From an uncultured Anaerolineales bacterium (GTDB lineage Bacteria > Chloroflexota > Anaerolineae > B4-G1), in contig CAZIWL010000004.1 in NCBI GenBank assembly GCA_964542755.1, positions 20,916-84,915 of the forward strand: DNA of 64,000 nucleotides, written 5' to 3'. Below, piece by piece: positions 41,684-62,700 of the stretch. Within the stretch, counting starts at the first letter, position 1, and every line of letters begins with the position of its first letter. The notes under the pieces were generated by a model. The model was given only the letters and a program-made list of their open reading frames with translations. It was not told the origin of the DNA and did not search any database. A program made the translations under genes and the position numbers.

Positions 41684-44503
41684 TCAGTCCCTTGACACCA
41701 GAGGTAGGAAGATCTCGTGGGCCCACGGCTCGACGGATGTGATGACATCGTCCGGAAGCGACGCGAGGCCCTCCGCGTCAGTAACGGTCAGTGTGAACGT
41801 GAGCACTGTCGGTGCTGCCGGAGCTCTGAACGTGGTCGTCATCGCGGTCTCGGCGTCCAGAGGGACAGCAGGGCCTCCGATCTGCGCCCAAAGATACGAG
41901 AGCGGGAGGTGTCCATCAGGATCGGAGCTGGCGGAGCCATCAAGAGTGCCGATGCCTCTCACGCCTACCGTCAGATCGGGCCCAGCAGCCGCGATCGGCC
42001 TTTGGTTGGTGACCGAGAAGGGATGTGTGGAAGTGATGGCACCGCAGGCATTGACTGCGGACACACTGATCGTCTGGAGACCCGCCGTCGTCCAAGTAAC
42101 CACCACCGTGTCCGTGAGGCCCGATGTGTGGGTTGTCGTGTTGAGTGACACGCCGGCGCTGCCGCTCCACGTGTAGGTGATGGGCTGCTGCGACGCCAGC
42201 GGGCTCACCGTGGCGGTCAACCGTGTCGACGAGCGAAGGGCAGGGGGATCCGGGCCCGCGATCTCAACACTTCTCGGGGCGATGCAGTCCGTTAGGCCTC
42301 CCAGTCTGGCGATGAAGATGTCATACTCGCCGCGATTGACATCTTGATAGGCGTTGAACGTCGGAAAGTCGGTGGACCGGGTACCGCCGGTGACGTAGAC
42401 GTCGCCATTGGAATCGAAGGCAATGCCCAGAGCGGTGTCGGCGCCGGTGCCTCCGAGGTAGGTCCCGAAGACCATCGTACCAGTCGGGTCGAACTTTGCC
42501 ACGACGGGATCGCCAGGTCCGTAGTAAGCGAGGTCCACCTCCGGCGCGACCCCGCCCTTGAAGGTTGCTTGGAGGGGGTCCACCGTGGGGAAATTGGTGG
42601 ATCCTGAGCCGCCGGTAACGAAAACGTGGCTCGCTCCGTCGGTGAGGATCCCGCGGAAAGCATCGTTGCCGTCTCCGCCGACGAGTCGGCTGTAGATGAG
42701 GCTGACCGGATCGGTCTCCAGCGCCACCAAGAAGGCATCGAAGTCCCCTCCTCCGTGGGCGGGGCTGCCAGGCGTGGTCGGGAAGTCGCTGGACTCGGTA
42801 CCTCCGGTCCAAAAGACGCGTCCCCCGTCCTCAACGGACACGCCGCCGCTGGTGTCCGAATCCGTGCCACCGAAGTAACTGGCGAAGAGGAGCTGGGCGG
42901 CACCTGGCTGCGCGGGATCGAGCTTGGCGAGATAGAGATCGATGCCGCCCGCATTCGAGGCCTGAAGCGGGTTCTTCGTTGGAAGATTGCTGGAATGCGT
43001 TCGGCCTGCAAAGTAAACGATCCCACTGTCCACGTCTAGCGCCAGACCCTCCTCCGTAGCGGAGCCGCCGAAGCACGTGGAATAGACGAGTGAATCTGTA
43101 CCCGATGCTGTTGTGTCCAGGATCGAAACCGCGGCGTCGACGCCATTGCCGCAGCTTTGATAGGCATCCGGTGTCGTGGGGAAATCGGATGACTGCGTGT
43201 GGCCCACAGCGTAAAGGAGGCCGTTGCGAACGACGCCCTGCGCAAACTCGTCGAAGCTGTTGCCAGCAAGGTATGTCGCATACTCGACGGCGCCCGCGGC
43301 GTCGAGCTGGAAGACCATGCCATTGTAGGTGTCGCCGGGGGCGGTGGACTGGTAAGCTCCTGCGGTCGTCGGAAAGTCATCAGAGAATGTGTAGCCGACG
43401 ACGTAGGCTTTCCCTGCAGCGTCGACGTCGATCCAGGTTGGGTTGTCGAAGTCACTCCCACCGACATAGGTATGATAGACCATCTGATGGAGTCCGGTCA
43501 AGGAGGGGTCGAGCTTGGTCACGAAAGCATCCGAGGTCTCGTAGTCGCCAAGGGCACCGGCAAGGCGTGATGACGGGAAGCTGGCAGCATCCGACACGCC
43601 GGTCACATAGACGTTATCATCTGCATCGACACCGATGCCGCAGCCCTCCTCGCTTCCGCTCCCGCCGACGTAGGTACTGTAGTCTAGGGTGGGATCGATG
43701 ATCAGCGGGTGTTCGTTGTCGTACCTCCCGACGGCGAACTTGATCCCACCGCCTCGATTTCGAACGTATCGGATGTCGACGAACCGTCGTTCGCCGCCCG
43801 CGTCTTGCCAGGCTACGGGCTGCCGCTCCACAAGAGGTGACCTGTCAGGTTCGCCGTCGGGCGTGATGAGGAGCTCGCCGCCGCGCAGGCTGACATCTGA
43901 GGCTCCATCGTAGTGCCATGAGATGGAATCGGGGTTTCCGCCTGGAGCCACCTCGAAGGTTCCTTTCAAGACCCCCGTACGGCCCGTGAAGACGAGATCT
44001 ATGTCTTCGTAAAGGTTCTCGTAGGCCAGGCCGGCGTAGGTCGGGATGCCGAGGTACCAGGCGTCCGGATCGTTCCCGAAGATGTAGTTGACCACTCCAG
44101 GGAGTGCATTCCGACCCACAACGCGGACGCGCTCATTTGCACCCTCGAAGCGCAGCTGGATGGTGGTTCTCTTTGCGGACTCGGACGGCTCGGCTTTCAG
44201 CCCGTTCATGGCTGCACTCAGCAAGTCTGCCGCGCGCCGAGGAAGGCGGAGCGGGAGAACGATCTCATTGCGGGAGAAGTAGAGACGATGGGATGCCTCG
44301 AGCGTGCCGAAGAGGACGTCGGATGCATTCTGTCCCGCGTTTGGGACGAAGACCATCGCCGGTTCGGCTGAGACGCCCTCCAGGGAGGCACTCGAGCGGT
44401 TCTCGGGCAGGGCATCACGGTCGGCGCTCAGCCCCGAGCAGGCGGCCAGAAGACTCAGCATCAAGACGAAGTTGGGTAAGAGGCCCAGGGGTGGGCGGTT
44501 CAT
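41684..44503 (-). CDS. SBBP-repeat beta-propeller lipoprotein with C-terminal PKD/Ig-like domains and the C-terminal IFLPLVSRD tag
   Basis: Signal peptide with lipobox LLAAC. Repeated SDFPTT / SSNLPT / TDFPT beta-propeller blades. Tandem Ig/PKD-like C-terminal domains. It ends EPWAHEIFLPLVSRD. Confidence 0.8.
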   Translation of the reverse strand: MNRPPLGLLPNFVLMLSLLAACSGLSADRDALPENRSSASLEGVSAEPAMVFVPNAGQNASDVLFGTLEASHRLYFSRNEIVLPLRLPRRAADLLSAAMNGLKAEPSESAKRTTIQLRFEGANERVRVVGRNALPGVVNYIFGNDPDAWYLGIPTYAGLAYENLYEDIDLVFTGRTGVLKGTFEVAPGGNPDSISWHYDGASDVSLRGGELLITPDGEPDRSPLVERQPVAWQDAGGERRFVDIRYVRNRGGGIKFAVGRYDNEHPLIIDPTLDYSTYVGGSGSEEGCGIGVDADDNVYVTGVSDAASFPSSRLAGALGDYETSDAFVTKLDPSLTGLHQMVYHTYVGGSDFDNPTWIDVDAAGKAYVVGYTFSDDFPTTAGAYQSTAPGDTYNGMVFQLDAAGAVEYATYLAGNSFDEFAQGVVRNGLLYAVGHTQSSDFPTTPDAYQSCGNGVDAAVSILDTTASGTDSLVYSTCFGGSATEEGLALDVDSGIVYFAGRTHSSNLPTKNPLQASNAGGIDLYLAKLDPAQPGAAQLLFASYFGGTDSDTSGGVSVEDGGRVFWTGGTESSDFPTTPGSPAHGGGDFDAFLVALETDPVSLIYSRLVGGDGNDAFRGILTDGASHVFVTGGSGSTNFPTVDPLQATFKGGVAPEVDLAYYGPGDPVVAKFDPTGTMVFGTYLGGTGADTALGIAFDSNGDVYVTGGTRSTDFPTFNAYQDVNRGEYDIFIARLGGLTDCIAPRSVEIAGPDPPALRSSTRLTATVSPLASQQPITYTWSGSAGVSLNTTTHTSGLTDTVVVTWTTAGLQTISVSAVNACGAITSTHPFSVTNQRPIAAAGPDLTVGVRGIGTLDGSASSDPDGHLPLSYLWAQIGGPAVPLDAETAMTTTFRAPAAPTVLTFTLTVTDAEGLASLPDDVITSVEPWAHEIFLPLVSRD

Positions 44504-44542
44504 TGTATCCTCCTCTCGTTGTCGTAGTGGTCCGACGGGTTC

Positions 44543-45850
44543 CTAGATATGCGGGAGTGAGCCGAGATTCTCCTTGGATAGGGGTGGTCGGTAGGTGAAG
44601 AGCTGTGTGCCGACGACGAAGCATGCGAGGGCGAAGAGCAGGAGCACTGCTGAGGGGCGAAGGACATCGCCAATCGTCCCGCCGTAGAATATCAGGGCGT
44701 TCAGCGCGTCCAAGGCCCAAGCGATAGGTGAGATATGGCCCAGCGTACGCATCCAAGAAGGCACGAAGGCCAGCGGCCACCAAGCACCTCCCAGTGGTGC
44801 GAGCACCATGTACGCGGAGGTGGCAAGACTGCTGGCCTGTTGCGGTGACTGCGCCACCGCCCCCAGCACCAGGGCCAGGGATGCGATGGCCAGGACGTAT
44901 GCCGTGCCAACGATCAACGCACCGAGAGGGGCGGTTCCAAGGTTTGCTCCAAGCAATCCGCCAAAGAGCAGCAGAACAGCGAACTGAAGGATTCCCAGGA
45001 AGCAGGTCGCGAGTAGCTTGCCTCCCAGCAAGTGCGCCCTGTTCACCGGCATCGTGCCGATGCGGGGCAGGATGCCGACCCAACGTTCCTCGGCCAGGGA
45101 CTGCGCCATACCCAGGATGCTTACCATGACAAACATAACGACGATACTGGGCGTCGAGAGCTTGAAGCCGTTTTCGAGGACCTCGGCACCCATGATTTGG
45201 GCCTGGCTCCGTTGGTCAGACGCGGCTGTCATCCGGACCATCGGAGCGCGTCCGAACGCTGCGTCGACGTGGGCCCGCCGGGCTGCTGTGAAGGAAGGTC
45301 CAGTTTCGATCTCCAGCGACTCGGCCGCCTGGACGCTCAGACGGGTAGCCAGGATGGGGCCGCCAATGGTGGCGACGGCGCTCTCCAGCGCGACATACAC
45401 GATCTCGGACGCTGCCGAGGACCCGCGGGTCTCTAAGACGACGGACGTGTCCTGTCCGCCGACCAGCGAGGCCTCGAAATCACGTGGGATACGCACGATG
45501 GCGAACGTGATGTCATCGAGCAGTCGGTGGCGGGCGAGCGAGGGCGACAAAGAGAGGGTACCGACATCGAGTCCGCAGCCTTCGTCGCTATGGCCGCAGC
45601 CTGGGCAGAGCAAGAGCGTTGTGTTGGCGTCCCGGAGGGCGGCCAGAAGGGCCCTGGACGTAGAGGTTCCATCCTCGTCTAAGACGTCCACACGGATCGT
45701 GGCCGGGACGAGGCGCGCCACACCCTGGGCGCCCACGCCGGCCAAGTATATGATCACCATGGGCAGGACGAGGAGCAGGAGCCAGTTTTGCTTCTCCCGC
45801 AACGTCATCTGAAGCTCGTTTCTGGCAACTACCCAGATCTTGAACATCAC
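44543..45850 (-). CDS. ABC-2 type transporter permease
   Basis: N-terminal TM helix plus a large extracytoplasmic loop, then 5 C-terminal TM helices; the ABC-2 family pattern. Confidence 0.75.
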   Translation of the reverse strand: MMFKIWVVARNELQMTLREKQNWLLLLVLPMVIIYLAGVGAQGVARLVPATIRVDVLDEDGTSTSRALLAALRDANTTLLLCPGCGHSDEGCGLDVGTLSLSPSLARHRLLDDITFAIVRIPRDFEASLVGGQDTSVVLETRGSSAASEIVYVALESAVATIGGPILATRLSVQAAESLEIETGPSFTAARRAHVDAAFGRAPMVRMTAASDQRSQAQIMGAEVLENGFKLSTPSIVVMFVMVSILGMAQSLAEERWVGILPRIGTMPVNRAHLLGGKLLATCFLGILQFAVLLLFGGLLGANLGTAPLGALIVGTAYVLAIASLALVLGAVAQSPQQASSLATSAYMVLAPLGGAWWPLAFVPSWMRTLGHISPIAWALDALNALIFYGGTIGDVLRPSAVLLLFALACFVVGTQLFTYRPPLSKENLGSLPHI

Positions 45851-45867
45851 CTATCCGTATTCCAGTC

Positions 45868-47160
45868 CTAGAGGAACGTGGTGCGGCGCCTCAGGAGCAT
45901 GCCGCCGACGAGGAAGGACAAGGATGCCATGGCGAGTAGGATCGACAGGTGTGGAAGCAGGCTGGCTGGGCTGCCACCGTTGGCGGCTTTCAGGAATCCA
46001 TCCATCGCCCAGTACTGGAAGGTCAGTTTCGAGGCGGTATCAAGTGGTCTCGGCAGCAACGAGACAGGGAGGAAGATGCCGCCGAGTAAGCCGCTCAGCA
46101 AGACGACGGCGCGGCCGTAGTTCGCCGCCTGCACATAGGAGTTGGCGAGTCCCGCGATGGTCACTCCAAGGCCTGTTGCCGAGGCCACAGTTGCCCCTGT
46201 CAGGAGCACGAGGCTCAGCCCACACACGGATGCGCCGCCGGGCGAGCCTCCCTGCCATCGCTCCCACAGGGCCACTCCGCCTATCATGGCGACCATCTGC
46301 ACGGTGCCGTTCAGGAAGGTGCCCAACGTTTTGCCTCCCAGGACGACGCCGGGCCATGTCGGCGTCACTTGCATTCTCTGCAGGGTCCAGGAAGCTTCCT
46401 CTTCCAAGAGCGAGGCGCTGCCCATAAGGGCTGTGAGACCCGTGAAGGATATGCCGAGCGCAGCTGCCAGATAGTGCGTCAGGCGTACCTGCGGTGCCGG
46501 GGGCCCGACCAGTAGACGCTTGATCTTGACCGGGTTCGATTCTGGCGAGGCGCCCTTGAAGGCTACCTCTGCGACGAACTCGTCCAACACACCCTCCCTC
46601 AGGCGTGCCCGTGAGTGGGGGTGCTGGGCGAGCCCTTCGACGGTTGCGTAGACGGCGGCCTCGGCGGTCCGTAGTCTCTGCCCCAAGGCCTCGATCATGC
46701 ATGCGAACGCCTCGCCACGGAAGTCGTAGGTGTCGTTGAGGTAGATCTCCATTGGGCTCCGTCCGGTGCTCCACGATGCTGAGAAGTCGGGCGGGATCAA
46801 GACTGCAGCCACAAGTCCTTCTTGCCGCACCAGTTGCCGCGCCTCGCGCTCAGAGCTAATGCGGCGGACGTCGAGAAGGTCGAATGGTTCGCTGTGGCTC
46901 ACAGCCGGTTCCGACGGATCAGCATGGAGGGCTGCGACGATCAGGTCACCGAAGTTGCCCCATTCACCTCCTTGGTCTGAGTTGACTACCCCAACGGGTA
47001 TGCGGGGGTTTGGAATGCCCCGGCTGAGGAACAGGTCCCCGAAAGCAAGATCGATGAGAAGAGTCACCAGCAGGGGCGCAGCGATGGTCAGACACAGAAC
47101 TGCAGGATCGGTGAACCGCAGTGCCACGTCCTTCCAGGCAATGAGGAGTAGCTTTCTCAC
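45868..47160 (-). CDS. ABC-2 type transporter permease (paralog)
   Basis: Same architecture as the downstream permease (N-terminal TM, large loop, C-terminal TM bundle). It overlaps the ATPase gene by 4 nt. Confidence 0.75.
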   Translation of the reverse strand: MRKLLLIAWKDVALRFTDPAVLCLTIAAPLLVTLLIDLAFGDLFLSRGIPNPRIPVGVVNSDQGGEWGNFGDLIVAALHADPSEPAVSHSEPFDLLDVRRISSEREARQLVRQEGLVAAVLIPPDFSASWSTGRSPMEIYLNDTYDFRGEAFACMIEALGQRLRTAEAAVYATVEGLAQHPHSRARLREGVLDEFVAEVAFKGASPESNPVKIKRLLVGPPAPQVRLTHYLAAALGISFTGLTALMGSASLLEEEASWTLQRMQVTPTWPGVVLGGKTLGTFLNGTVQMVAMIGGVALWERWQGGSPGGASVCGLSLVLLTGATVASATGLGVTIAGLANSYVQAANYGRAVVLLSGLLGGIFLPVSLLPRPLDTASKLTFQYWAMDGFLKAANGGSPASLLPHLSILLAMASLSFLVGGMLLRRRTTFL

Positions 47161-48140
47161 TGAGATGCTTCCTCCAGCGTCTCACCGGTAAGCTGCAGAA
47201 AGACAGATTCCAGGCTGGGCCGCTGGACCGTCAATGCGTCGATTGTCAGCCCTGTGGCCCTCACGGCTTCAAGGATAGTCGTCAGTCGGTCGGCAGCGCG
47301 GTGGACGGAGACGAGCAGTGAGCCGTCGGCGGCTTGGACCTGAGTGACATCGGGCAGACGCCTCAGGGCACCCATGGTCGAGTCAGATACGGGGGTTGGC
47401 TGGACGTGTAGGCGCACAGAGTCGGCCACGCTTGAGGACCGGACCAGCTGCTCCGGGGTGTCGAGAGCGATGATGCGTCCGCGATGCATGATGCCGACCC
47501 GCTGGCTGAGCTCCTGTGCCTCGTCCATGCGGTGGGTCGTGTAGAGGATCGTTGTGCCATAGTTCTGGTTCAATCCGACGACGAGGTTGAGTATCCTTCG
47601 TCGGCTGTCCGGATCGAGACCCAACGTGGGCTCGTCTAGGTAGGCGATCTGGGGCTCGTGGAGCACACCCGCCGCGACGTTGAGTCGCCTCTTCATGCCA
47701 TTGGAATAGTGCGCGACCCTGTCGTCCGCCCGTTCGGAGAGTCCAACGGTCTCCAGTGCTGCCTCTATGGCTTCTCGGAGCGCTTTGCCCCGCAAGCCGT
47801 AGAGCAGGCCGAAGTACCTGAGGTTCTGCCTCCCGGTGAGGCGGGTGTAGAGGGCCAATTCCTCAGGAACCACGCCGACGAGACGTTTGACGGCCATTGG
47901 ATCACGCGAGACGCTGTGACCCGCGACGAACGCGTCACCTGCGGTCGGACGGAGAAGGCCGCAGAGCAGGGCGATCAGCGTGGTCTTCCCTGCGCCATTG
48001 GGGCCGAGAAGGCTCAGAATCTCACCCTGTCGAACTACGAGCGAGACATCGTTGACGGCCAAACTTCCGTCTGATGCACGGTACTGCTTGGAGAGATGCC
48101 GCACACGGATTATCTCAGTCATCTGGGCTCTCCTGGTCAC
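47157..48140 (-). CDS. ABC transporter ATP-binding protein
   Basis: Walker A GPNGAGKTT, ABC signature LSGGMKRRL-like (YSNGMKRRLNVA), Walker B LDEPTLGLD, H-loop. Confidence 0.9.
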   Translation of the reverse strand: MTRRAQMTEIIRVRHLSKQYRASDGSLAVNDVSLVVRQGEILSLLGPNGAGKTTLIALLCGLLRPTAGDAFVAGHSVSRDPMAVKRLVGVVPEELALYTRLTGRQNLRYFGLLYGLRGKALREAIEAALETVGLSERADDRVAHYSNGMKRRLNVAAGVLHEPQIAYLDEPTLGLDPDSRRRILNLVVGLNQNYGTTILYTTHRMDEAQELSQRVGIMHRGRIIALDTPEQLVRSSSVADSVRLHVQPTPVSDSTMGALRRLPDVTQVQAADGSLLVSVHRAADRLTTILEAVRATGLTIDALTVQRPSLESVFLQLTGETLEEASQ

Positions 48141-49134
48141 CGATCCGCGGCGGCCAGTCTATCTTCGGACAAAAGGGTTGGGCGAGAACGTCCCGGTCGA
48201 TGGCCGCGTTGGGCCAGCGGCTGACGAGTATCCGTCCCTCCGCGCCCAGGGACGGTCGCGGGTCGACCTGGATAGAGAAGTCAACAAACTCATCCCACGA
48301 GCCCGCGAACCTGCGAGGCCAGTCCTGTGCTGATGGATGATCCAGATCGAGGCGGCCCTCCTCACTAAGACGATCATACGCGTCGTGCATCGCCCACGCA
48401 ATGCTCTCAGCGTCAAGAGCCTCCCAACCTAGAAGAAGCGACCCGTGTTTCCCCCACTGTACGCCGATCCAGGGGCGTCCATGGTGTCGGTTTGCATCGG
48501 CGGCCGCGGTCATGGTGGTCAAGAGGTGACCGTGGAAGTAGGCGTAGACGGCCGTCACCTGGAGGCTGGTCTGGTCGTATGCCACCCAGATGACTTCATG
48601 ATCCGATGGCTCACCATCCCCTGGGTAGTCGATGTCGTCCCCCCAGAAAAGATGATAGCCCACGAGCGGGCGAGTTGGATGCAGTACCGCGACAGCGTCC
48701 TCCAGGGGGAAGTACTCGGTCGGAGTGACGAAAAGACGGGGAGTGTAGCGGAGCGCTCGCTCCCGTTGCTCTGCGGAAGGTGCCGCGGGAGGTTCCAGTT
48801 TCAGAAGGTGCCGGTATGTTTCGCTAGCAGCCTGGAGTTGGCCGCGGTTGTGGTGGGCCGCGGCCAGGCTGTTTAGGGCACCGGGATTGGTCAGATCGCG
48901 GCTCTCGCGGGCTGGGGATACGGGCGTTCGCATGCACCCGCCCAGCGACGAAACCGCCAGTACCGCCAGCAGTGCGATCAACCTGGCTCGACAGGGATGA
49001 CTCCGCGTCCCGCAGCGTGGTGCGCCAGCGCCCGTCCGTCCGCGCCGACCGAGCTGTATTTCGCGAGGCTCGTCTTGTTGCCGGGGCGCGATCACGTCTC
49101 GTAGAACCCTTTCCGGCTCCAGTCCTCTTCCCAT
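48115..49134 (-). CDS. hypothetical lipoprotein (start uncertain)
   Basis: Lipobox segment LIALLAVLAVSSLGGC. The track start at 49134 would overlap the radical SAM gene by 43 nt, so the real start is probably further downstream (candidate TTG). No recognised domain. Confidence 0.5.
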   Translation of the reverse strand: MGRGLEPERVLRDVIAPRQQDEPREIQLGRRGRTGAGAPRCGTRSHPCRARLIALLAVLAVSSLGGCMRTPVSPARESRDLTNPGALNSLAAAHHNRGQLQAASETYRHLLKLEPPAAPSAEQRERALRYTPRLFVTPTEYFPLEDAVAVLHPTRPLVGYHLFWGDDIDYPGDGEPSDHEVIWVAYDQTSLQVTAVYAYFHGHLLTTMTAAADANRHHGRPWIGVQWGKHGSLLLGWEALDAESIAWAMHDAYDRLSEEGRLDLDHPSAQDWPRRFAGSWDEFVDFSIQVDPRPSLGAEGRILVSRWPNAAIDRDVLAQPFCPKIDWPPRIGDQESPDD

Positions 49135-50495
49135 GCCTTGTCTGCAAGGGCCTTGTACGACTCTGCGAAGCCGAGCAGTTGATCAAAGTGGTCGTAGTAG
49201 AGGCTGAGGGCCCCGGGATGGGTCGGATGAGCATCGTGCCTTTCTATCAGGTCCCGGGCAACCCATGGAGAGTCGATGATCATACAGGGGCGTAGGTGAT
49301 TGCTGTCGTAGGGCTGTCGTGCCCTGATGTCCTTGAAGAGCGGGCTCTTGAGAGCCGCAAGAAGGGTCGTGTCGCGAACGTTGTCCGTTGCGAAATGGGT
49401 GAAGACGCACGGCTCGATGTCGCCTCGAGCGTTAATGTGAAAGTACCGGCGCCCGCCGGAGATGCACCCTCGGACATACGGCCCATCGTTCCAGAAATCA
49501 ATGATCAACAGGGGCAGGTGGCTGCGTATGTCCCGCAGTGAGCTCCTAAGGAAGTCTCGTTGATCTGGGGAGAGCATGGATGAGAAGTCTCCGGACCCAT
49601 CCACCGGGACGTACATGAAGTAGTAGTTCACCAAGGCACCTTGGTCGACCAAGAACTCCAAGAAGCGGAAAGAAGTGACCTCTTTGAGGTTCTGTCGGGT
49701 GACGGTTACCGAGGTCCCGAAGGGCACCTTCGCTTTTCGCAGGTGCCCGAAAGTGGTCAGGATTCTCTCGAAGACCCCGGATCCTCGCCTCGTGTCGGTG
49801 TTCTGCTGGAAGCCCTCTATGCTGATCAGGACCAGTACGTTTCCCATCTCTGCCAGCCTCTCCGCGGTCTGCGGAGTGATCAAGGTCCCGTTGGTATAGA
49901 TGTGAAAGAAAAAGTGAGGATACCTTTGGATGACGTCCAGCGTGTGCGGATAGAGGAAGGGTTCGCCGCCGCTGAGGACAATCAGAAAGATGCCAAGTTC
50001 CTCACATTCTTTGAGGATTCTATCTAGGAGGCGATGGGAGAGTTCGTCGACTCGATCGTACCCACTGGCGTAGCATCCACGGCATTTCAGATTGCACGCG
50101 TTGGTCGGGCTCAGAACCAGGAGGATCGGGAAATTGGTGATCCCGTGCTCCGCGGTCAGTCGTTTTCGTCGCTCGTGACCCCAGATCCAGCAGTTGTAGA
50201 GAAGCGTCTGGAAGAGCCGCTGCCGACCGTAAGCGGACATAGAGCCCATTGCTCGCTCGAAGAATGCCGCCGCCGGGTGCTCGGGGTTCTCCAGCATCTC
50301 TAGCACGCCAGCGACGAAGCAATTGAGTTCGTCGTGTCGTGAGAAGGATCGAATCAGTCGCAGCAACTCGGTGATATTCCCGCTCCTCGGGACGGCCAGC
50401 TTGCTCAAGATATGGCCGATAGTCTGATGGCTCAGCTTGACGGAGGCGTCTCGGATATCCTTCAGTGGTTGCATCGTTCGCTCCCGAGAGAACAT
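49092..50495 (-). CDS. radical SAM enzyme with a Cys-containing C-terminal auxiliary (SPASM/twitch-like) region, immediately downstream of the ether-lipid genes
   Basis: CX3CX2C in CNLKCRGCY followed by the GGEPFLYP glycine-rich SAM motif. C-terminal Cys residues at CEELG, GCISGG, GDIEPCVF and LRPCMI. An N-terminal extension of about 125 aa lacks the B12-binding signature. Confidence 0.85.
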   Translation of the reverse strand: MFSRERTMQPLKDIRDASVKLSHQTIGHILSKLAVPRSGNITELLRLIRSFSRHDELNCFVAGVLEMLENPEHPAAAFFERAMGSMSAYGRQRLFQTLLYNCWIWGHERRKRLTAEHGITNFPILLVLSPTNACNLKCRGCYASGYDRVDELSHRLLDRILKECEELGIFLIVLSGGEPFLYPHTLDVIQRYPHFFFHIYTNGTLITPQTAERLAEMGNVLVLISIEGFQQNTDTRRGSGVFERILTTFGHLRKAKVPFGTSVTVTRQNLKEVTSFRFLEFLVDQGALVNYYFMYVPVDGSGDFSSMLSPDQRDFLRSSLRDIRSHLPLLIIDFWNDGPYVRGCISGGRRYFHINARGDIEPCVFTHFATDNVRDTTLLAALKSPLFKDIRARQPYDSNHLRPCMIIDSPWVARDLIERHDAHPTHPGALSLYYDHFDQLLGFAESYKALADKAWEEDWSRKGFYET

Positions 50496-50610
50496 CTTGA
50501 TGGGCCTTGCCCGGCAGGTTCGTAGTCCTCAACTGCATGCCGTCGGCGAAACAGCACCGGGGACGTGGCTCGTTTCCGCCGGTGACCGGAAGCGAGCCAG
50601 CGACTGGGGC

Positions 50611-51375
50611 CTAGGAGCGGCGCCAGTGGATCTGATCGGAGAAGGCGCGCAGGGTGCTTGGCGCCAACGAGCGCTCGATGACTGTCCCGATGACCACCAT
50701 GTCTGCCCCCGCTTCCAACTTCTGTCTCGCAGTTTGCGGATCCCTGATCCCTCCGCCTACCAGGATTGGGAGGCTGACTCGTTCTCTGACAGCAGCAATC
50801 ATAGCGTCCGGCACAGGGTTGGAGGCCCCGCTTCCCGCTTCAAGATAGACGGCCTTCATGCCTAGCTGCTGGGCGGCCAGGGCGTGTACCATGGCGATCT
50901 CGGGCTTGTCCCGCGGGATCGGTTTGACGCCGCTGAAGAACTCGGCGGATGTTATCGTGTCAGACGCGATGAGCAAGTAGGCCGTGGGGATAGACTCAAG
51001 GTTGCATCGGTCGATCCATAGGGCACTTCTGACCTGCTCGCCGATGAGATACTCAGGGTTCCGGCCGCTGACCAGGCTGAGGAGAAGGATGGCATCGAAA
51101 TCTGGAGAGATCTGCGCGGCCGGGCCGGACGCGCCCGGAAAGAGGATCAGTGGGCAATCCACCGACGCACGGATCGTTGCCACTGTCTTGTGAAGCTGGT
51201 CGGTAAATAGAAAGCTACCCCCCACCAGGATGGCATCCGCACCCGCTGCCGCAGCGTGCCGGGCGAAAGCCATGGCGTCATCTCCGGCCTGCTTGTCGGG
51301 GTCGTTGAGGGCCAGGAAGACGGCGCCTTTCTGGGCGATGGCGTCGAGCAGGTACTCGTAGACACTCACAGCCAT
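50611..51375 (-). CDS. geranylgeranylglyceryl-phosphate synthase / PcrB family prenyl-glyceryl-phosphate synthase
   Basis: PcrB/GGGPS TIM-barrel motifs FLALNDPDK, ILVGGS, YLEAGSG and VGGGIRD, aligning with B. subtilis PcrB (LDPNK, IIGGS, YLEYSG, YGGGIKD). Confidence 0.85.
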   Translation of the reverse strand: MAVSVYEYLLDAIAQKGAVFLALNDPDKQAGDDAMAFARHAAAAGADAILVGGSFLFTDQLHKTVATIRASVDCPLILFPGASGPAAQISPDFDAILLLSLVSGRNPEYLIGEQVRSALWIDRCNLESIPTAYLLIASDTITSAEFFSGVKPIPRDKPEIAMVHALAAQQLGMKAVYLEAGSGASNPVPDAMIAAVRERVSLPILVGGGIRDPQTARQKLEAGADMVVIGTVIERSLAPSTLRAFSDQIHWRRS

Positions 51376-52262: not shown

Positions 52263-52720
52263 TGCGCCAGGAGGAGCAGGGAGAGTAGGTGGACGAAGGG
52301 GAAATCCTGCAAGAGCGTCCCGATCGATACCATCTGGCGCATTGTCGAGACCTGACCGGCCCGCAACGCAGACGGGCGTTGACGCGCGGCATATCGGACG
52401 ATCCAGAGCGTCTTGGGGATCACCCAGAGTGTGATGAGCAGGGTGGACAGGGTGCCGGGGTAACTGGCGAAATAGGCCGTGTACACCACGAACTCGGCGA
52501 ACATGTCCATAGCGCGGTCGGTTTGGGGCGAGTCTTGTCCTTGCCTGCGCGCGACGGCGCCGTCAGCGCTGTCGAGAATGAGCGCCATGAAGAGGAGACC
52601 GACGGCGGCCCCCGGTCGATGGAGAAGGATGGTCAGTGCGGAGGCGAAGCACATCCAGCCGCGCAGCCGTGAGATCTCATTTGCCGGCAGCGGAATGAAG
52701 GCGAGGAGTTGGTCGGCCAC
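52235..52720 (-). CDS. CDP-alcohol phosphatidyltransferase family protein (small; start uncertain)
   Basis: The signature DSADGAVARRQG...TDRAMD matches D-x2-DG-x2-AR...D-x3-D with a degenerate middle. The start is placed at GTG 52720 because the upstream part of the track ORF (to 53062) is occupied by the YdjM-like gene. An ATG at 52654 is an alternative start. Confidence 0.6.
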   Translation of the reverse strand: MADQLLAFIPLPANEISRLRGWMCFASALTILLHRPGAAVGLLFMALILDSADGAVARRQGQDSPQTDRAMDMFAEFVVYTAYFASYPGTLSTLLITLWVIPKTLWIVRYAARQRPSALRAGQVSTMRQMVSIGTLLQDFPFVHLLSLLLLAQWAFAWTPP

Positions 52721-52740
52721 CTTCTTGCGCTGACCCGTTG

Positions 52741-53187
52741 CTAGGCTACGGAGATGAGCAAGGATGCTCCGATGACCCCTGCCTCCTGTATGAATCGTAT
52801 CCAGAACTTCCTCCCAAGGGGCTGGTCCGCCGGGTTGCCAAAGTTGATCCTTGTGGGATCCGCGTAGATGAGTCGGAATGGAATACTCACACCGGAGATG
52901 AAGTCCAGAAAGAGGTGCACAGCCACGCAGAGGAGAAAGAGGCTGCCTGTCTGGCGGTGGAGGAGGGTCATGAGCAGTCCCGCAGTGCCATAGATGGTGG
53001 CCCCGAAGAGCCCGTGCATAAAGGTCTGAGATGTCTCGAACCCGTTGACCTGGAGTTTCCATCTCGCGGCGCTCGGCAGATGGTCGAGATCTGGCATCAC
53101 CGAGAAGGCGACGGATGCTGGAAGATAGCCGGAAGGGAAGAATTGGCTCAGTGCAATGCCGACAGCAACGTGGGTTACGATGTTCAC
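52741..53187 (-). CDS. YdjM/DUF457-like membrane-bound metal-dependent hydrolase
   Basis: The N-terminus MNIVTHVAVGIAL...MPDLDHLP is the YdjM family pattern (His/Asp metal ligands in TM-embedded segments). 148 aa. Confidence 0.6.
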   Translation of the reverse strand: MNIVTHVAVGIALSQFFPSGYLPASVAFSVMPDLDHLPSAARWKLQVNGFETSQTFMHGLFGATIYGTAGLLMTLLHRQTGSLFLLCVAVHLFLDFISGVSIPFRLIYADPTRINFGNPADQPLGRKFWIRFIQEAGVIGASLLISVA

Positions 53188-53199
53188 GGGCGATAGGGT

Positions 53200-54339
53200 T
53201 CAGAAAACGTTGAGAACAAATTGAGCAAACCTATCGTGACGACGCATGGCCTGAATCACGCGATCCAGAACGCCAGGAACACTAAGGAGTCGCTGAGCGA
53301 CAGCCTCTCTTTCCAGTTGCCTGCCGATGGCAGCACGGCAGTGACGGTCGAATCGACGGAGTTCCTGGTAGGTGCCTCCATCGCTCCCCAAAGCGTCGTG
53401 AACCACGGCAGCGGCTGTGCGACCGCTCTCAAGAGCGTTGTAGATCCCCCCACCTGTCAAGGGACTCACGAAGAACCCGGCGTCACCGACGATCAACGCG
53501 CCCGGGTAGCTTCTCCGCACTCTTCCCGAGGCGAGAGGCAGCAGTCCACTGGAGGCCCTTCCGATCTGCTCGGCACCAGAGAACCGCGCCGCCAAGTAGC
53601 GGCCGTGGACGAATGTCTCAAAGGCCTTCCTCAGAGACACCCGATCCTTGCGCGCGACGTCAAGACGCAGCCCCACCCCCACGTTGGCCCGGCCGTCGCC
53701 AAGGGGGAAAATCCAGGCATAGCCCGGCAGCGTGGACTGGTTGAAGAAGAACTCCGCACGCCCACGAGATTCCACGCCTTCAAAGTAGGCTCGCCGGGCA
53801 ATGGCCGCGTGTCGCGAACTGGGGCGGTCGGGCTGGAGCCGTCGGGCCAGAGTGGAGGTGGCGCCGTCGGCGATGATTGTGATCCGGGCTCGACGGTCCG
53901 CGGTCTTCCCGTTGGTTGAGCCTCGCACTCCTCGGACGAGGCCGTCCTCCACGATGGGCTGGGTAGCACGAAAGCGCTCAAAACGCGCCCCTTCTTCCAA
54001 AGCCTTCTGCCACAGAATGTGGTCGAGGCGCTGCCGATGCAGGACGTAGCCGTGGCGAGAACGCCCGTTCTTCTGGGGAAACGCGCCCTCATACGTGTGA
54101 CCGGATGGGGATACGCCCAGCACGTGGTGGCAGCTGTAGAGGGCCTCTGTCTGGCCCTCGAGATCGATGTCAAGCTCGGACAGCAGTCGGAGTGTGTTCC
54201 AGCCTATGCCGTCACCGCAGACCTTCGGGCGGGGAAACTCAGCCTGGTCCAGGAGTGTAACCGGAACGCTGTGTCGCGCCAGGACCATGGCCGCCGCGCT
54301 GCCCGCCGGGCCGGCGCCAACAACCAGGACCCCATCCAT
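53200..54339 (-). CDS. geranylgeranyl reductase family FAD-dependent oxidoreductase
   Basis: FAD motif VVGAGPAGSAAA, then KVCGDGIG, and the GGR-family C-terminal motif LIVGDAGFFVSPLTGGGIYNALESG. Confidence 0.85.
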   Translation of the reverse strand: MDGVLVVGAGPAGSAAAMVLARHSVPVTLLDQAEFPRPKVCGDGIGWNTLRLLSELDIDLEGQTEALYSCHHVLGVSPSGHTYEGAFPQKNGRSRHGYVLHRQRLDHILWQKALEEGARFERFRATQPIVEDGLVRGVRGSTNGKTADRRARITIIADGATSTLARRLQPDRPSSRHAAIARRAYFEGVESRGRAEFFFNQSTLPGYAWIFPLGDGRANVGVGLRLDVARKDRVSLRKAFETFVHGRYLAARFSGAEQIGRASSGLLPLASGRVRRSYPGALIVGDAGFFVSPLTGGGIYNALESGRTAAAVVHDALGSDGGTYQELRRFDRHCRAAIGRQLEREAVAQRLLSVPGVLDRVIQAMRRHDRFAQFVLNVF

Positions 54340-54346
54340 GAAGCCA

Positions 54347-54375: not shown

Positions 54376-54490
54376 TGGCAATCGAGGTTGAAGGACAAAG
54401 CGCGGTACCTGGCTCCGCTACTGTGAGGCCGAGATGTCACCGGGTGCTTCTCAACCCCTCAGCTCGGCGCCCTCTTCGGCGCGCAGGAGG

Positions 54491-57400
54491 CTACGTTCCC
54501 CGGAGGACGAGGGGCAAGAAAATGGACGGCTCCAGCGTCTCGATGGTGATCGTGTGGGTCTGACTGACGACGCGGCCAATCGCATTCTGCGCGGTTACAG
54601 TGACTACGTGCTCTCCCGGGACGTGCCAAATAGCCTCCAAGCTGTCGCTAAGGCTGTAGCTCCGTCGTACCCGTCCGGGCCACCACTGGTGGGTGGCGCG
54701 CCAGGTGTAGGTGACAGGGACGGTTGCACTGAGGGGCTCGACCATTGCGCGTAGGGTCAGGAACTGGTCGGCGAGGCCGTCGCGGGGACCCTCGATACTC
54801 ACAGCTGCAAGTGGGACAACGGGCGCGACGGGCGTGTATTCTGTGTATTGATTGTCAAAGGGCGTGGGGTCGTGCTCGTCGGCAGTGGCTTGCAGCAGGG
54901 TGGCGATGGTGCCGGCCGTCGTAATGTGCAGGCTGAGGGTCAAGGTGACCGAGTGGCCTTCAGCAATCCGGCCTATGCGACAGGATAGGGTCCCCTTATC
55001 ACGGCTGCACGAGCCCTGGTCGACCCTGAGCGTAGCGAACTCCGAACCTGTGGGCAGCGTAGCGGTTAGCACGACGCCGGACGCATCATCCGGCCCGCGG
55101 TTGCTGATGACGACGGTGTGCGTCAAGAGCTGACCGGCCAAAGGCTGCGGCGGCACATGGCCGGCGCTTACTGTCAGATCAGCCACCGGCGCGACAATCA
55201 TATCGAACACTCGCGCGCGCGCTGAGGAGGGCTCGGCTTCGGAAGCGACCAGTACCGAGACCGGGTTCGTGGTACCCAGGGGCACATCTGGAGGTACCCG
55301 GATACTGAGCAGACTGAGGGTCTCACCATCGTCGTCCAACGAGACCATCGTTGCCCGGGGTCCAGTCAGCCAGCCGTGGGCGTCGCTGATCGTCAGCACG
55401 GCGGTTCGGGCGAGCCCCGTCCAGTCCAAGACGCGGATGACGGCCGAATCCGAGACGCCCCGCGGCACGTAGGTGGGGTCCTCGTCAGGGACGACAGTGA
55501 GCGAGCGGGGCCCCGGGGCCCACGGCTCGCATTCGACGGAGCCGCGGATCTGGTCTCTTGGGTCGGCGGTCTGACCCCACCAATTGCCCGAAGCCGACAC
55601 CGTGACGCCGCCGTCGGCGTTGACGAGCGCGTATCCCGCATTGTCGAGGAAGTCGCTTTCTTCCACGGCGAGGGAAGTCAAGCCACCAAAGAGTGTGACT
55701 CCGTCGTCGCCATTTTCGGCGATGCGGCAATTGTGGATGCCGGGCGGCATCGAGTCAGCGGCGGCGGGCCAGTTCACCGGGGTGTCCCACTCGCGGCGTG
55801 CTTTTTGCTCGGGCCCCACGTCCGCCCAGTCATCGTGCCACGTCTCGAAAGCTATACCGCCACTGGTATTGCCGGAGACGACGAGGTCGACCAGCTTGGG
55901 CTGGACGGCGGCGGCGTAGACGCCGTAGCCCTCATTGCTGCTGATCTGCCCGTCGCGGATGGACAGCGATCCGCGGCTGAGCATCAGGCCGTGCCCCTCG
56001 TTCAGATTGACAGTCAGACGGTGTCCGAGAAAGTTCACGTCGCTGCCGAGGATGCCGCCGAGCGCATTGCCGTGCAGCGTGGTGCTCGACATAGCTAGGG
56101 GACCCGCGCCGTACGCGTATATGCCCCACCCGTCGTTGTGGGAGATGTCGGCCTGGGTGACGTTCACGGCGCTGGCGTAGGCGCGGAGCCCGTCTCCCCG
56201 ATTGTGCTGGACATCGCTGTCGGTGCCCCGCAGGACGAGCCCGGCCCGCTCAAGATCGATGCCGTGGCCCGCGTTCTTGCGAATCTGAACGTCGGTGAGC
56301 TGGAGGTTGCAGTTCTGCAGCCGGATGCCTGGGCCGCCATTCCCCACCACAAGGAAACCCTCCGGCAGCGAGAGCCCTCCAGAGGCAGAGATTCCGCCCA
56401 GGTCGTTGCCCGTGACCCCCTCGAGGGTATCCTTCAGGACGGTAACCGGACCGGTCTGCGCGAAGATACCCCAGCCTCCGTTGTCCCGGACCTGGGTTCC
56501 CCCGCTGACTAGAATCGCGCCGGGGGACGCGTGGAGCCCATTTCCTTGGTTGCCGACGATCCGGTTGTTGGCACCCCTGAGGATCAGCGAGGGGAGCGCA
56601 TCGGGCCGCCAAGGAGCGCCTCCAGCAATCGTTACGCCGCCGCCGAGGTTGTCCTGGACGATGACATCCGTCAGCTCGGTATCGTCGTCGCCCCAAACGA
56701 CGATTCCGGGGCCCCCGTTCCCCTCGACGGTGAACCCGACCGGGAGGGTCAGGTTACGACCGGCGAACAGGCCGCCGCGCTCGTTGTCCCGCAGGGCATC
56801 CATGGCGCCCTCGGCGATGAAGACCGATCCACCCTCGGCGACGATGCCCCAGCCGCCGTTTCCGGAGATTTCGGCCTGGCCGCGGATGGTGACTGAACCG
56901 GGAGCCGCGACGATCCCGCCGCCCCCGTTGTTTGTGATCTGGTTGTCGTCGCCGCCGAGAATCAGCCCCGGCACGACGGCTTTGCCCGCATGACCGGTGA
57001 CCACGACGCCAATGCCGACGCCGCGGTTGTCTCGAACACTAATATCCTCGAGCCGGGTGTCTCGGCCCGACCAGACGACGATACCTGGTCCGCCGTTTCT
57101 CTCAACTACGAACCCTGAGGGCAGGCCGATGCCCGCGGCTGCGTAGAGACCACCTCCTCCATTAGCGGCAACGGTGTAGACTGCATCCTCAGGCACGCTG
57201 ATAGACCCCTCATCTGCCCGGATGCCCCAGCCTCTATTGCCCACGACTTCGGTGGAGGCCTCAAGGGTGACGTTTCCAGACACGGCTCGGATCCCATCGC
57301 CGCCGTTGTTCGCGATGCGATTCTCCTCGCCGCGAAGTAGTAGACCCTTACCGAGCCCCCCTCCGCCGGGACCCACGGTCAGCAGGAGGCCGTCTTCCCC

Positions 57401-59796: not shown

Positions 59797-62700
59797 CTAA
59801 GAGGGTGTCTGCCGTAAGACCAGGGGTAGGTAAATGCTCGGTGAGGTTGAGTCCACGATGGCATAGGCAGCGGCCAGGTTGTTGGATCGGTCCGGGTCGT
59901 GCTCCGCGGCTGCCACCTCGGCGGTTGTGTAGAGGCCATCAGCATTCGGCTGGAGGAAGAGGTGCACGTGTTCGGTGCCGCCGCTGGCAACGGATCCCAG
60001 GCCACAGACGACCTGACCTGGATGTTCCGTACACGTTCCTTGGCTTGCGGTGACCGATAGGACGGTGGTGGTAGAGGGCAGGGTATGCGTGACTGTCGCG
60101 GAACTCGCACCATCGGGCCCTGTGTTGGTGACAAGCAAAGTTGCAGTGATCGTATCGCCCGCTGCGGTCTCCGGCATTTGGTTTGCGATCGCCAGGTCAG
60201 CAACCAGCGCTGTGCTGACCTGGAAGGAGGTGATGCCCTCCGCTGTGGGATCGGATTGTGATCTCGCGGCGAAGGTGACGTGGTCGGTTGTCCCGATGGA
60301 GACCGTTGAGGGGATCGTGAAGGTCACGGGTACCGTGGTATCCGCGTTGAGCGTCGTGGTGAAAGGACCTTGATCCAGGAGCCAGCCCAGGGTGTCAGCC
60401 AATGTCACCGTGACGGTGTCCGTTGGCGCTTCCCAATGGCGAAGGCGAACTTCAGCGGTCGTCGTCACACCCCGAGAGGCGGTCACCGGGTTATCGCGAG
60501 GTACGGCGACGAGGGTCACGGTGACGGGCCTCCAGTCGGCGACGTCCACGGCACCGAGTGCCTCGTCCCCGTTGCCGCTGCCACCGCCACTGGGGCCATT
60601 GGCTGCGCCCCACCAGTTCTCCCTGGCCTCGACGGTCACCGAGGGATCGAGGTTCCGCAGGCCGGCTCCCGCGTTTCCGTAGATGTTCGAACTGCGGACT
60701 GAGGGGTCGGAGCCGCTCTGGGTCCTGATGCCGTCGCCCTCATTGTCGAAGAGAGAGCAACCTTCGAGCACTGGACTGCTGTTCTCCAGCAGGACGGCGG
60801 TGCCGTCGGGGTCGACAGCGCCGCCGGCCAATCCACGGTACGGGACGTGGCAGGCCTCGAAGCGCTGGAGGGTGTAGGCGTTGTCCCGGCTGTCGGTCTC
60901 TCGTACACCCAGGTTGCAGGCGAAGAAGATGTCGTCCTCGAAGTGGATGCTCGAGGAGTTGTCGATCCGCATGCAAACACCGTGATCCACCACTGCGTAC
61001 CTTCTCAGTCGGTTGAGGTGCGATCTGTCGCGGAAGACGATGCCGTAGTCGTCGTTGTCCCGGATCACGGCCTGGTAGTCGGCGAGGATGGGAGCGGCTA
61101 CTCCAACCTCAACCCAGAGCGGTCCCTCGAATCTGTTTACCTGGGATCTTTCCAGGTAGATACCGTGGCCTTCGTTGCGCTCAATCGTAATTTCCCCGAG
61201 CACCTCGTTGTAGTGGGCGTCGCTCAGACGCAGGCCGTCCCGTCCGTTCTCCCGAATGGTATTTTCTCGAATGGTGTTGTGGATTCCCGCGTCGATACGA
61301 ATGCCATCCTCATCATTCTCCTCGATGGTATTGGGCTCTCCTCCGCCCACCGGGATGAAGTTGTAGTGGGATTCCTTGAGAAAGATGCCGGCCATCTTGT
61401 TATCCACGATCCGATTGCCGGCGATGTCGTTCTGCTGCGAGTTGTGGCTCATGTAGACGCCGTGCCACCCGTTCTCCGCCACGTCCTCGTTTCCGTGGAT
61501 CTGGTTGAACATGGAGGCCCGGAGGTGGATGCCGTTCTTGTAGTTGGCTCTGATTTCGTTGTCCTGGACCAGAGTGAACCGAGACCCGAGCAGGAAGACG
61601 CCGTGATTGTTGTCGTCCTTGATCGAGTTGTTGATGATGTTATTGAGCGGGGTTCCCGGGTCGGTGGCAGACGTGCATTGGTCCACGTGGATTCCGTTTC
61701 CGGTGTTGTAGCTGATTGTGTTCACGTCGGCGCCCGGCTCGCCGATCTGCGTGCCTTTCGTATTCTGGAGATGGATGCCGTGGCCCTGGTTCTCTCGGAT
61801 GATGTTGTTCAGGATCCCGTTCTCCTGTCCCGCCTCCGGCTGGCAGCTCGACACCCGAATGCCATTCTCTTGGTTGCTCTTGACGTAATTGCCGCCGATC
61901 TCGATGCGAGACGATGTCTCGATGAGTATCCCATCCTTCTCGTTCTGTTCGATCTCATTCATCACGCCCAAGATCGCACCCACGTCCGTCCCCGCCGAAT
62001 TGGCGATGACGACGCCGTAGGGGTTATGGTGGATCTCGTTTCCAGCGATGCGATTCTCGTTGCCGGCGGAGCACTCGGAGAACTCGACGCGAACGCCGGC
62101 GTCATCGTTGTCGGGGCCGATGGTGTTCTTCTTCACCGTGACCGGACTGTCGACGGTGAACCCGACGCAGGTGTTGCACGCCCGGGATAGGCGGATGCCG
62201 TTCTCGCGGTGACCGTGAAGGGTATTGTCCGTGATCTCGTTGGGGTCGGCATAGCCCCCGGTGACGCCCACGGTGATGCCGTTCTTTTGGCGCCCCCCAC
62301 CGTCGATCGTGTTGCCGGTAACGACGTTCCCGTCGGAGGCGAGAAGGTAGACACCATCCTCGTCATTCTCTGAGATGTCGTTGCCATTCGACACGACACA
62401 ACCGCTCGACTCCTCGAGACGGACGCCGTGTTCCGCGTTGCTCTCGATGGTATTGGCCTCAATCCGGTTCTCCTGGCCCGCCGGCGCTTGACAGTCTTCG
62501 AGGGCAACGCCGCTGCCGTCATTAGATTTGACAGTGTTGCCCTGGTCGGCCCCGCCAACCAGCGAGCCGTAGGACGCTTTGAGGTGGATGCCGTGCCCCG
62601 TGTTCCCCTCAACGGTGTTCGCCGTGAGCTCATTCACGTTGTCGGCTGCGCACTGACAAGCATCGAGTTTGATGCCGTTCCCATTCTCCGAGCCGCAGGA

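Follow-up and report, generated by a model that had tools for sequence, protein, structure and literature searches.

The YLP-box, a putative C-terminal sorting or retention motif, at the ends of three large exported proteins of an uncultured Anaerolineales bacterium

A stretch of 64,000 nucleotides from an uncultured Anaerolineales bacterium (contig CAZIWL010000004.1, positions 20,916 to 84,915; hereafter the window, in whose own numbering all coordinates are given) encodes three large exported proteins, called here A, B and C, which share a short hydrophobic peptide at their C-terminal ends. We are nearly certain that this peptide is the curated YLP-box, a motif that is already known to NCBI as a database entry without a described mechanism. 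As the best explanation we see in it a sorting or retention tag, ultrashort and C-terminal, for surface proteins that Chloroflexota, mainly Anaerolineae lineages, export by the Sec pathway, and we lean towards an envelope retention tag that tethers the C-terminal end of the protein.

Results

Three large exported proteins of the window end in the YLP-box

The three genes and their tags are located as follows:

41684..44503, minus strand: gene A, lipoprotein of 939 amino acids (aa) with the lipobox LLAAC, DUF7948, an SBBP beta-propeller, PKD and a C-terminal YLP-box
41690..41713, minus strand: YLP-box of gene A, I-F-L-P-L-V-S-R, then D and the stop codon
54491..59464, minus strand: gene B, protein of 1657 aa with a signal-anchor, CBM96/DNRLRE, right-handed beta-helix, DUF11, PKD and a C-terminal YLP-box
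54500..54523, minus strand: YLP-box of gene B, I-F-L-P-L-V-L-R, then G, T and the stop codon
59797..64000, minus strand: gene C, beta-helix (NosD-type repeats) and DUF11 protein with a C-terminal YLP-box, its N-terminus lying beyond the end of the window
59812..59835, minus strand: YLP-box of gene C, I-Y-L-P-L-V-L-R, then Q, T, P, S and the stop codon

Translation of the open reading frames (ORFs) gave the ending EIFLPLVSRD for protein A (longer form, EPWAHEIFLPLVSRD), PSIFLPLVLRGT for protein B (longer form, LEPSIFLPLVLRGT) and PSIYLPLVLRQTPS for protein C (longer form, TSPSIYLPLVLRQTPS), each followed by the stop codon. When the six frames of the window were scanned for LP[LIVM][VILM]x[RK], five matches were found, and the three extended ones were the ends of A, B and C. 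These data confirm a preliminary description of the window, in which three large exported proteins were said to share a C-terminal tag. As that description also stated, neither a transmembrane (TM) helix nor a basic cluster comes after the motif, the Arg of the tag being followed by one, two and four residues in A, B and C, respectively. In the Pfam and NCBIfam scans the order in the three proteins is PKD or DUF11 and then the box, and according to the Pfam scan the tag begins around 10-15 residues past the last Pfam domain.

The motif had been proposed as novel, a claim that did not hold, as NCBIfam release 20 already contains two models for it, NF050076.1 (sort_motif_YLP; 11 positions, cut-off of 15 bits) and NF053834.1 (ultrashort_CTERM; 10 positions, cut-off of 10 bits), both entitled "YLP-box putative sorting motif-containing protein". 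Each of the three tails is matched by both, the alignment covering residues I/F to R. Scanned alone, tail A reached 15.5 bits with NF050076 and 14.8 bits with NF053834, and tail C 15.1 and 14.1 bits, above both cut-offs in the two cases; tail B reached 13.5 bits with NF050076, 1.5 bits short of its cut-off, and 12.9 bits with NF053834, above it, the scores shifting slightly with the length of the sequence scanned. The models and the window tails show the same motif in the same C-terminal placement, with no sequence difference between them. Neither a function nor a partner nor a paper was found attached to NF050076 or NF053834 in the sources searched.

No sorting-domain model besides these two matched the isolated tails in NCBIfam at E ≤ 10, in agreement with the earlier statement that the tag is not a PEP-CTERM, LPXTG, PGF-CTERM or GlyGly-CTERM signal; the only other NCBIfam line, at 9 bits, paired the 52-aa tail of B with a PKD-repeat region by chance. 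In scans of the full-length proteins A, B and C against NCBIfam (E ≤ 1) and Pfam the tag went unreported, and matches were obtained from the isolated tails alone. Homologues with an NCBI name are entitled "SBBP repeat-containing protein" or "hypothetical protein", probably because the models remain silent on full-length proteins.

The shared ending is explained neither by chance nor by recent duplication

Coincidence was considered as the origin of the shared ending, as was a recent event in which paralogues came to share one duplicated, exon-like C-terminal piece, having in mind that the bodies of B and C fall in one BLAST cluster and are therefore paralogues. Against this, the back-translated DNA pattern ATHTWYYTNCCNYTNGTNNNNMG had three matches in the window, compared with none in any of 100 shuffles of the window that preserved its dinucleotides (mean 0.00, maximum 0). 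Moreover, the codons of the tag differ synonymously at five of the eight positions (CTA/TTG/CTA, CCT/CCC/CCC, CTG/CTC/CTG, GTG/GTC/GTC and AGG/CGG/CGG), and when the final 240 nt of the three genes were compared, the similarity was confined to the around 30 nt that encode the tag and the adjoining codons. The synonymous differences and the dissimilar flanking DNA exclude a recent duplication and indicate that selection acts on the peptide. As the same box is also present on hundreds of unrelated proteins elsewhere, we give this explanation practically no weight. The earlier description of the carriers as otherwise dissimilar in their N-terminal architecture needs a small correction, in that the two beta-helix proteins are paralogous in their bodies.

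The motif is C-terminal, modular and associated with export in public genomes and metagenomes

Public metagenomes were scanned for back-translated IYLPLVLRN (around 38 bits, with few chance matches), and at least 120 loci were found. Among the matches listed, 103 distinct contexts of the motif were used for the counts by position, and 103 tagged loci, the window included, for those by locus; loci are designated by L numbers. In 115 of the 121 IYLPLVLRN matches listed a stop codon appears one to eight residues after the Arg. The number of residues after this Arg was two in 62 of the 103 contexts, three in 22, four in 9 and one in 5. Position -2 was Y, H, F or W in 65 of them, position -1 mostly R, K, Y or F, and the residue after R-N mostly Y, R, H or F. 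Variants such as VYLPLIIR, LFLPLVMRNG, LWLPLILRGR and IYLPVVMRNY were seen, with [Y/F]-L-P as the invariant core; the extended consensus can be written as [Y/H/F/W]-[R/K]-[I/V/L]-[Y/F]-L-P-[L/I/V]-[V/I]-x-[R/K]-N-x, usually two to three residues from the carboxyl end.

For the distribution among lineages, a looser DNA pattern was scanned in one genome per species (185,579 species). The total of 113 genome matches is roughly the estimated chance number, and 22 of them terminate ORFs of at least 150 codons, of which 21 belong to Chloroflexota (Fisher p = 2.5e-14), spanning Anaerolineae/Anaerolineales, Caldilineaceae, Thermoflexus/Thermoflexales, Chloroflexaceae and unclassified Chloroflexota. 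The remaining one of the 22, in a metagenome-assembled genome (MAG) of Acidobacteriota, looks like a wrong-frame ORF.

A signal-peptide-like N-terminus was detected in 70 of 85 tagged complete ORFs (82%) and in 77 of 262 untagged neighbours (29%), an enrichment with an odds ratio of 11 (p = 5e-18) obtained with a crude rule, several of the 15 tagged "negatives" bearing obvious signal peptides. When 103 non-redundant tagged proteins were compared with Pfam over their last 330 residues, 76 families were matched, the commonest being DUF11 (17), PKD (12) and Beta_helix (11), followed by others such as CARDB, SBBP, LVIVD, Big_9, Chlam_PMP, cadherin and TSP3. More than one tagged gene is present in 24 of the 103 loci (23 of 102 without the window), the window having three per 64 kb. 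The motif is position-specific and enriched on signal-peptide proteins, not placed at random or equally frequent on cytoplasmic ones, so the original claim stands on this point, and these data support the view of the tag as a true motif under selection at the C-terminal end of surface proteins that are exported. All the tests carried out here agreed with a signal of the sorting type.

Boxes in other positions were also found. Internal YLP-boxes are kept between orthologues (L043:1084, L075:1416, L146, L023/L028, L202 and L150, with L174 also among the loci with conserved non-C-terminal boxes) and precede an extra domain of 140-220 aa, which is CARDB-like or LTD-like (lamin-tail-like). In L035:2754, from a Caldilineae MAG, the box comes directly after the signal peptide and before a Pro/Thr-rich (PT-rich) linker.

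Homologues of protein A carry either the YLP-box or a transmembrane tail

The homologues of protein A form one family of DUF7948 and SBBP lipoproteins. A 54%-identical orthologue with conserved synteny is encoded on CAZNRX010000108.1 ("uncultured Anaerolineales bacterium"), and other homologues are named "[Anaerolineales bacterium]" and "[Chloroflexi bacterium]". Around 20 of the 44 closest homologues terminate in variants of the YLP-box, often after a long Pro/Thr-rich linker, as in TPTPFYPLYLPLVVR and PTAIHVYLPIVVRQYQ. Eight others (P0015, P0021-P0024, P0026, P0039 and P0087; also L247:10001-12337) terminate in GGVVVPVNKLxLLxPWxGLAALxSLAALTVALVRRRGA, that is, a motif followed by a TM helix and a basic cluster, and one of these TM-tailed homologues is named "[Anaerolineales bacterium]". 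The N-terminal lipobox is retained with both kinds of tail.

When the tail with TM helix and RRR was compared with NCBIfam, no model was found above its cut-off. The sole match to LPXTG_anchor was with the TM and RRR part of an alternative-tail orthologue, and none was obtained with YLP-box tails. The PVNK..TM..RRR tail may represent an undescribed tripartite sorting domain. One of its carriers, P0021 from L247, is encoded downstream of the same UbiA-PcrB-rSAM-ABC-2 gene cluster as protein A (described below; rSAM, radical SAM), so for P0021 the TM tail replaces the YLP-box within one gene neighbourhood. Of the evidence found here, this swap speaks most clearly for the YLP-box acting as a C-terminal anchor to the envelope or as a sorting domain.

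Further properties of proteins A, B and C

The lipobox LLAAC of protein A is kept in its orthologues, and protein B has an N-terminal hydrophobic anchor, in such a way that export signals were found in both A and B. The PKD region of protein A aligns to models of M36 peptidases dependent on myxosortase or rhombosortase, just upstream of their sorting domains. In an AlphaFold2 model of protein A the propeller had a predicted local distance difference test (pLDDT) value above 90 at around residues 330-620, and values were mostly 75-95 up to around residue 830. Gene B was called with the same 1657 aa on metagenome contigs L234 and L235, and gene C reaches 1580 aa on L234, still cut by the end of the locus. 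In BLAST, B and C cluster with a tagged protein of 1496 aa encoded by an Anaerolineales MAG (L034), which is a paralogue of both. The window has a strong AT skew of -0.217 at 60001-64000, over gene C with its beta-helix repeats, unlike in its remaining part, which probably reflects the biased amino-acid composition of the repeats.

A small secreted protein is the commonest carrier of the box

Among the matches listed, the commonest metagenomic client of the box is a secreted protein of around 95 aa, found at the following places:

Loci of the small protein: L117, L133, L136, L139, L147, L154, L159, L164, L193, L216, L232 and L244-L246
Examples: L159:2491-2805, plus strand, and L245:8001-8291, plus strand

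It consists of a signal peptide, QSGGGYDLTWNTVDGGG..YSLGGTxGQPDAG..GGGYTLAGGFWGG, and ..Y[RK]-IYLPLVLRNx, in such a way that a Gly-rich triple GGGYxL repeat, GGFWGG and the YLP-box make up the whole protein. Its family comprises 2534 clusters (90% identity) without a Pfam domain, and the box is kept in all of the best 120 of more than 2500 members, in four of them as a near-variant. In all the loci with enough flank (around 12), the gene comes, usually directly, after that of an untagged secreted fibre-like protein of around 400-1200 aa; the one in L245 has a Peptidase_S74 domain, and L245 and L246 have two such cassettes per locus. The small protein may act as an adaptor that gives the box to proteins lacking one. 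AlphaFold2 prediction from 118 sequences gave the mature part a pLDDT below 50, with no fold. Its identification as PamT, the pilus tip protein of the candidate phyla radiation (CPR), was rejected, because the match had 23.7 bits against a cut-off of 240 and overlapped the signal peptide.

A lipid, radical SAM and ABC-2 gene cluster lies between the tagged genes

The genes for A and B are separated by a cluster that is described here as context of the tagged genes:

44543..54339, minus strand (the same as the tagged genes): cluster of lipid, radical SAM/SPASM and ABC-2 genes

Its lipid genes encode a geranylgeranyl reductase (which passes TIGR02032), a YdjM-like protein, a CDP-alcohol phosphatidyltransferase, a DGGGPS-like UbiA protein and GGGPS/PcrB (which passes TIGR01769). 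The others encode a radical SAM/SPASM protein of no specific family, a lipoprotein of around 300 aa, a DrrA-like ABC ATPase and two ABC-2 permeases. Judging from these genes, the cluster would make an archaeal-type isoprenoid glycerol-ether lipid. Archaeal-type lipid genes are known in bacteria (PMC6431249, PMC7852524), and no description of the version with rSAM and ABC-2 genes in Anaerolineales was seen in the literature searched.

The cluster is conserved on one strand, followed by the SBBP lipoprotein gene, in the window, L234-L239 and L247. Contigs with a geranylgeranyl reductase identical to that of the window and the same gene order come from ENA and JGI metagenomes. In L238 and L239 the same order is found again between YLP-box genes, with PcrB 70-71% identical, and in L247 the order is conserved as well, the SBBP orthologue downstream having the TM and RRR tail. 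The arrangement with flanking tagged genes does not recur in L241, and in L242 there is no tagged gene upstream of the cluster, the downstream side ending with the contig. The cluster was rejected as a property of the tag, because in L247 it accompanies a TM-tailed SBBP orthologue and in L241 the arrangement is absent; its presence beside the TM-tailed protein links it to the SBBP lipoprotein, not to the tag.

Genes adjoining the tagged genes, and other genes of the window and of L241

BLAST clustering of 482 ORFs from the 103 tagged loci showed, as recurrent untagged neighbours, regulators with BTAD, AAA and TPR domains in six loci, the rest being wrong-frame artefacts. These large SARP/MalT-like regulators adjoin YLP-box genes at the following positions:

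BTAD + AAA + TPR regulators: L102:1215-4703, L115:5319-8627, L210, L216:2-1276, L232:4634-7639 and L155:1-1383

In the related locus L241 (16558-18027 and neighbours), GGGPS, UbiA and geranylgeranyl reductase genes lie inside a cell-envelope glycopolymer locus, together with glycosyltransferases, a Wzy_C/TPR protein, LytR-CpsA-Psr and a TPR-fused Rce1-like/CPBP intramembrane protease. By analogy, this protease is a candidate for the enzyme that would process the tag, because CPBP proteases include myxosortase.

The scanned ORFs of the window are housekeeping, metabolic or function-unassigned. They include those for DnaE, methylmalonyl-CoA mutase, a 7TM histidine kinase, MscS, a PPDK-like protein, photolyases, AFOR, KARI and RNase J, as well as phosphofructokinase-like proteins judged by eye. 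The window also encodes, at 25009-27576 on the plus strand, a protein of 855 aa with an N-terminal TM segment, without a Pfam family and without a YLP-box, whose sole NCBIfam match is choice-of-anchor J at a sub-threshold score (25 bits against a cut-off of 30).

Discussion

The YLP-box has a C-terminal position, is associated with export signals, is modular, is restricted to one lineage and is interchangeable with a TM anchor in orthologues. From this we infer tethering to the envelope as the outcome, and also that a dedicated factor reads the tag, as opposed to a spontaneous insertion into the membrane, because Y, L, P and R are near-invariant and a generic hydrophobic insertion would not demand this. 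In the mechanism that we propose, the protein would be exported through its N-terminal signal peptide, lipobox or signal-anchor, and the tag, in many cases carried by a Pro/Thr-rich linker, would be the last part to emerge. On the outer side of the membrane a conserved factor of the envelope would then recognise it as a short linear motif and keep the C-terminal end attached to the cell envelope, presumably the role that the motif, TM helix and RRR tail have in the orthologues. We regard envelope retention by tethering of the C-terminal end as the function with somewhat better than even prospects.

The YLP-box is far shorter than any mechanistically understood sorting signal and is, to our knowledge, the shortest C-terminal tag of the sorting type. 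It resembles the signals of PEP-CTERM/exosortase, PGF-CTERM/archaeosortase A, GlyGly-CTERM/rhombosortase and MYXO-CTERM/myxosortase in being C-terminal on many unrelated signal-peptide surface proteins of one lineage, in following often a Thr/Pro-rich linker and in being interchangeable with a tail of such type in orthologues. However, the box has neither a TM helix nor an Arg cluster, the whole element spans 8-12 residues, and no exosortase, archaeosortase, rhombosortase or CPBP gene adjoins the tagged genes. Models of exosortase-type signals gave no match to the window tails at E ≤ 10, and this class was discarded because a TM helix of around 20 residues and an Arg-rich cluster are required, and only one to four residues follow the box.

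With the LPXTG/sortase system the box shares an invariant Leu-Pro core, the C-terminal placement, its presence on exported surface proteins and a monoderm-type lineage, but it lacks T-G, the TM helix and the charged tail; the sequence in the window is LPLV[LS]R and TIGR01167 remained unmatched on the window tails, so LPXTG was rejected as well. The C-terminal domain of the type IX secretion system (T9SS), Por_Secre_tail, a beta-sandwich of around 80-100 aa, was not found in the Pfam and NCBIfam scans of the three proteins and their tails. The TonB box and the peptides of donor-strand exchange, as in chaperone-usher systems and the "Pam" pili of the CPR (10.64898/2026.03.03.709456), are also short, hydrophobic and strand-like and stand on a flexible end, and the pairing of the small box-bearing protein with fibre-like proteins would be a further likeness by analogy; the comparison is an analogy only, and for the YLP-box an acceptor domain was not identified.

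As to how the tag would act, covalent processing and non-covalent docking appear about equally likely, and both are tentative. The former is a sub-case of tethering with a specific chemistry, in which an undiscovered membrane-associated transpeptidase or protease would cleave within or after the box and transfer the protein to peptidoglycan, a wall polymer or a lipid. The near-invariance of L-P, as in LPXTG, the tight distance to the C-terminal end (two or three residues after the Arg in 84 of the 103 contexts), the exchange for a tripartite tail of the exosortase/archaeosortase type in orthologues and the PT-rich linkers often placed before the box, as before known cell-wall sorting signals, all argue for it, and internal boxes with their extra domain would simply be cleaved off. 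It is harder to reconcile with the absence of the TM helix and basic tail that hold the substrate in known sortase-type systems, with the lack of a conserved enzyme adjoining the tagged genes in around 100 loci, and with the N-proximal box of L035, which would be unable to serve a C-terminal transfer. In non-covalent docking the hydrophobic peptide would stay uncleaved, entering the membrane interface or binding a receptor groove or the edge of a beta-sheet, as a TonB box or a donor strand does. The logo [Y/H/F/W][R/K]-IYLPLVL-RN-[Y/R/H], with aromatic and basic residues on both sides of a hydrophobic core of seven residues, fits this well. Docking needs neither a TM helix nor an adjoining enzyme, agrees with the conservation of internal and N-proximal boxes between orthologues and would give the abundant small protein, which follows the gene of an untagged fibre-like protein, a role as surface adaptor. 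Such a peptide has, on the other side, no obvious need for its position two to three residues from the carboxyl end (95% of cases), and no receptor candidate was identified, the PamT match of the small protein being no evidence as it covers the signal peptide.

Two readings without tethering were also considered. C-terminal signals drive export by the type I secretion system (T1SS) and by T9SS in other phyla, and the clients of the YLP-box are large adhesin-like or enzyme-like extracellular proteins with ABC-type transporter genes between the tagged genes of the window, so the tag might direct passage across an S-layer, sheath or polysaccharide, or release to the medium. We consider this unlikely, because the neighbouring transporter is of the ABC-2 type (DrrA/NodIJ-like) and not a T1SS, and it goes with the SBBP orthologue whichever tail this has; in addition, a TM anchor that replaces the box in orthologues argues for retention, and A and B are anchored to the membrane by their N-terminal ends. 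Even less credit is given to a reading without any role in sorting, in which the box would be a degradation signal at the C-terminal end or would form the final beta-strand of a C-terminal fold common to the carriers. Its sequence is strand-like and hydrophobic, and hydrophobic C-termini can act as degrons, as in the ssrA tag, but the box follows at least 76 Pfam families, often separated from them by long PT linkers, and in A, B and C it lies around 10-15 residues beyond the last domain. It is, moreover, confined to proteins that are exported, and stable across thousands of homologues.

Several observations weigh against a dedicated C-terminal tethering tag. No paper on the YLP-box motif was found in a literature search, and the AlphaFold2 model of protein A offers no usable structure for the region of the tag, as residues 835-939 had pLDDT values of 31-40. 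When 89 deduplicated neighbours of tagged genes were surveyed with Pfam, 134 families came up, none of them in more than four proteins, and no protease, sortase, exosortase, rhomboid or CPBP candidate was detected among the scanned ORFs of the window, a few short ones lying outside the scan. With no enzyme beside the tagged genes, the enzyme, if any, is not encoded beside its substrates, so the dedicated processing pathway that had been suggested for the motif continues to be a proposal for which no enzyme candidate was found there, its basis, a genuine and selected C-terminal motif of exported proteins, being confirmed. Seven hydrophobic residues are too short to span a membrane, which leaves unexplained how a substrate would be held for processing. 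The internal and N-proximal boxes show that a strictly C-terminal reading is not universal. Finally, as A and B are already anchored to the membrane by their N-terminal ends, a second tether is not obviously needed, and the box would have to fix the other end or serve a purpose beyond simple retention.

A bolder proposal, which we put forward as a doubtful one, is that of a "YLP-sortase", a new class of envelope enzymes that would read a tag of 8-12 residues placed two to three residues from the carboxyl end. If true, each cell would have dozens of surface proteins linked by this enzyme to its wall or to a lipid. In its extreme version the attachment would be to the archaeal-type isoprenoid ether lipid expected from the cluster between the tagged genes, by analogy with the lipid anchoring of archaeosortase/PGF-CTERM proteins, which depends on PssA/PssD (PMC7157517). 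We consider this version very improbable, because the SBBP orthologue of L247 has the cluster beside it in spite of its TM and RRR tail.

For the window itself the result is routine, as it adds three more members to a motif curated by NCBI. Sediments, soils, hot springs and wastewater sludge are rich in Chloroflexota. Little is known of how these bacteria build their cell surface, and many of the big adhesin-like or enzyme-like proteins on it, a large share, appear to be labelled with the YLP-box. Identifying what reads the tag would explain how the surface is assembled in a major phylum and could reveal a new way of tethering proteins.

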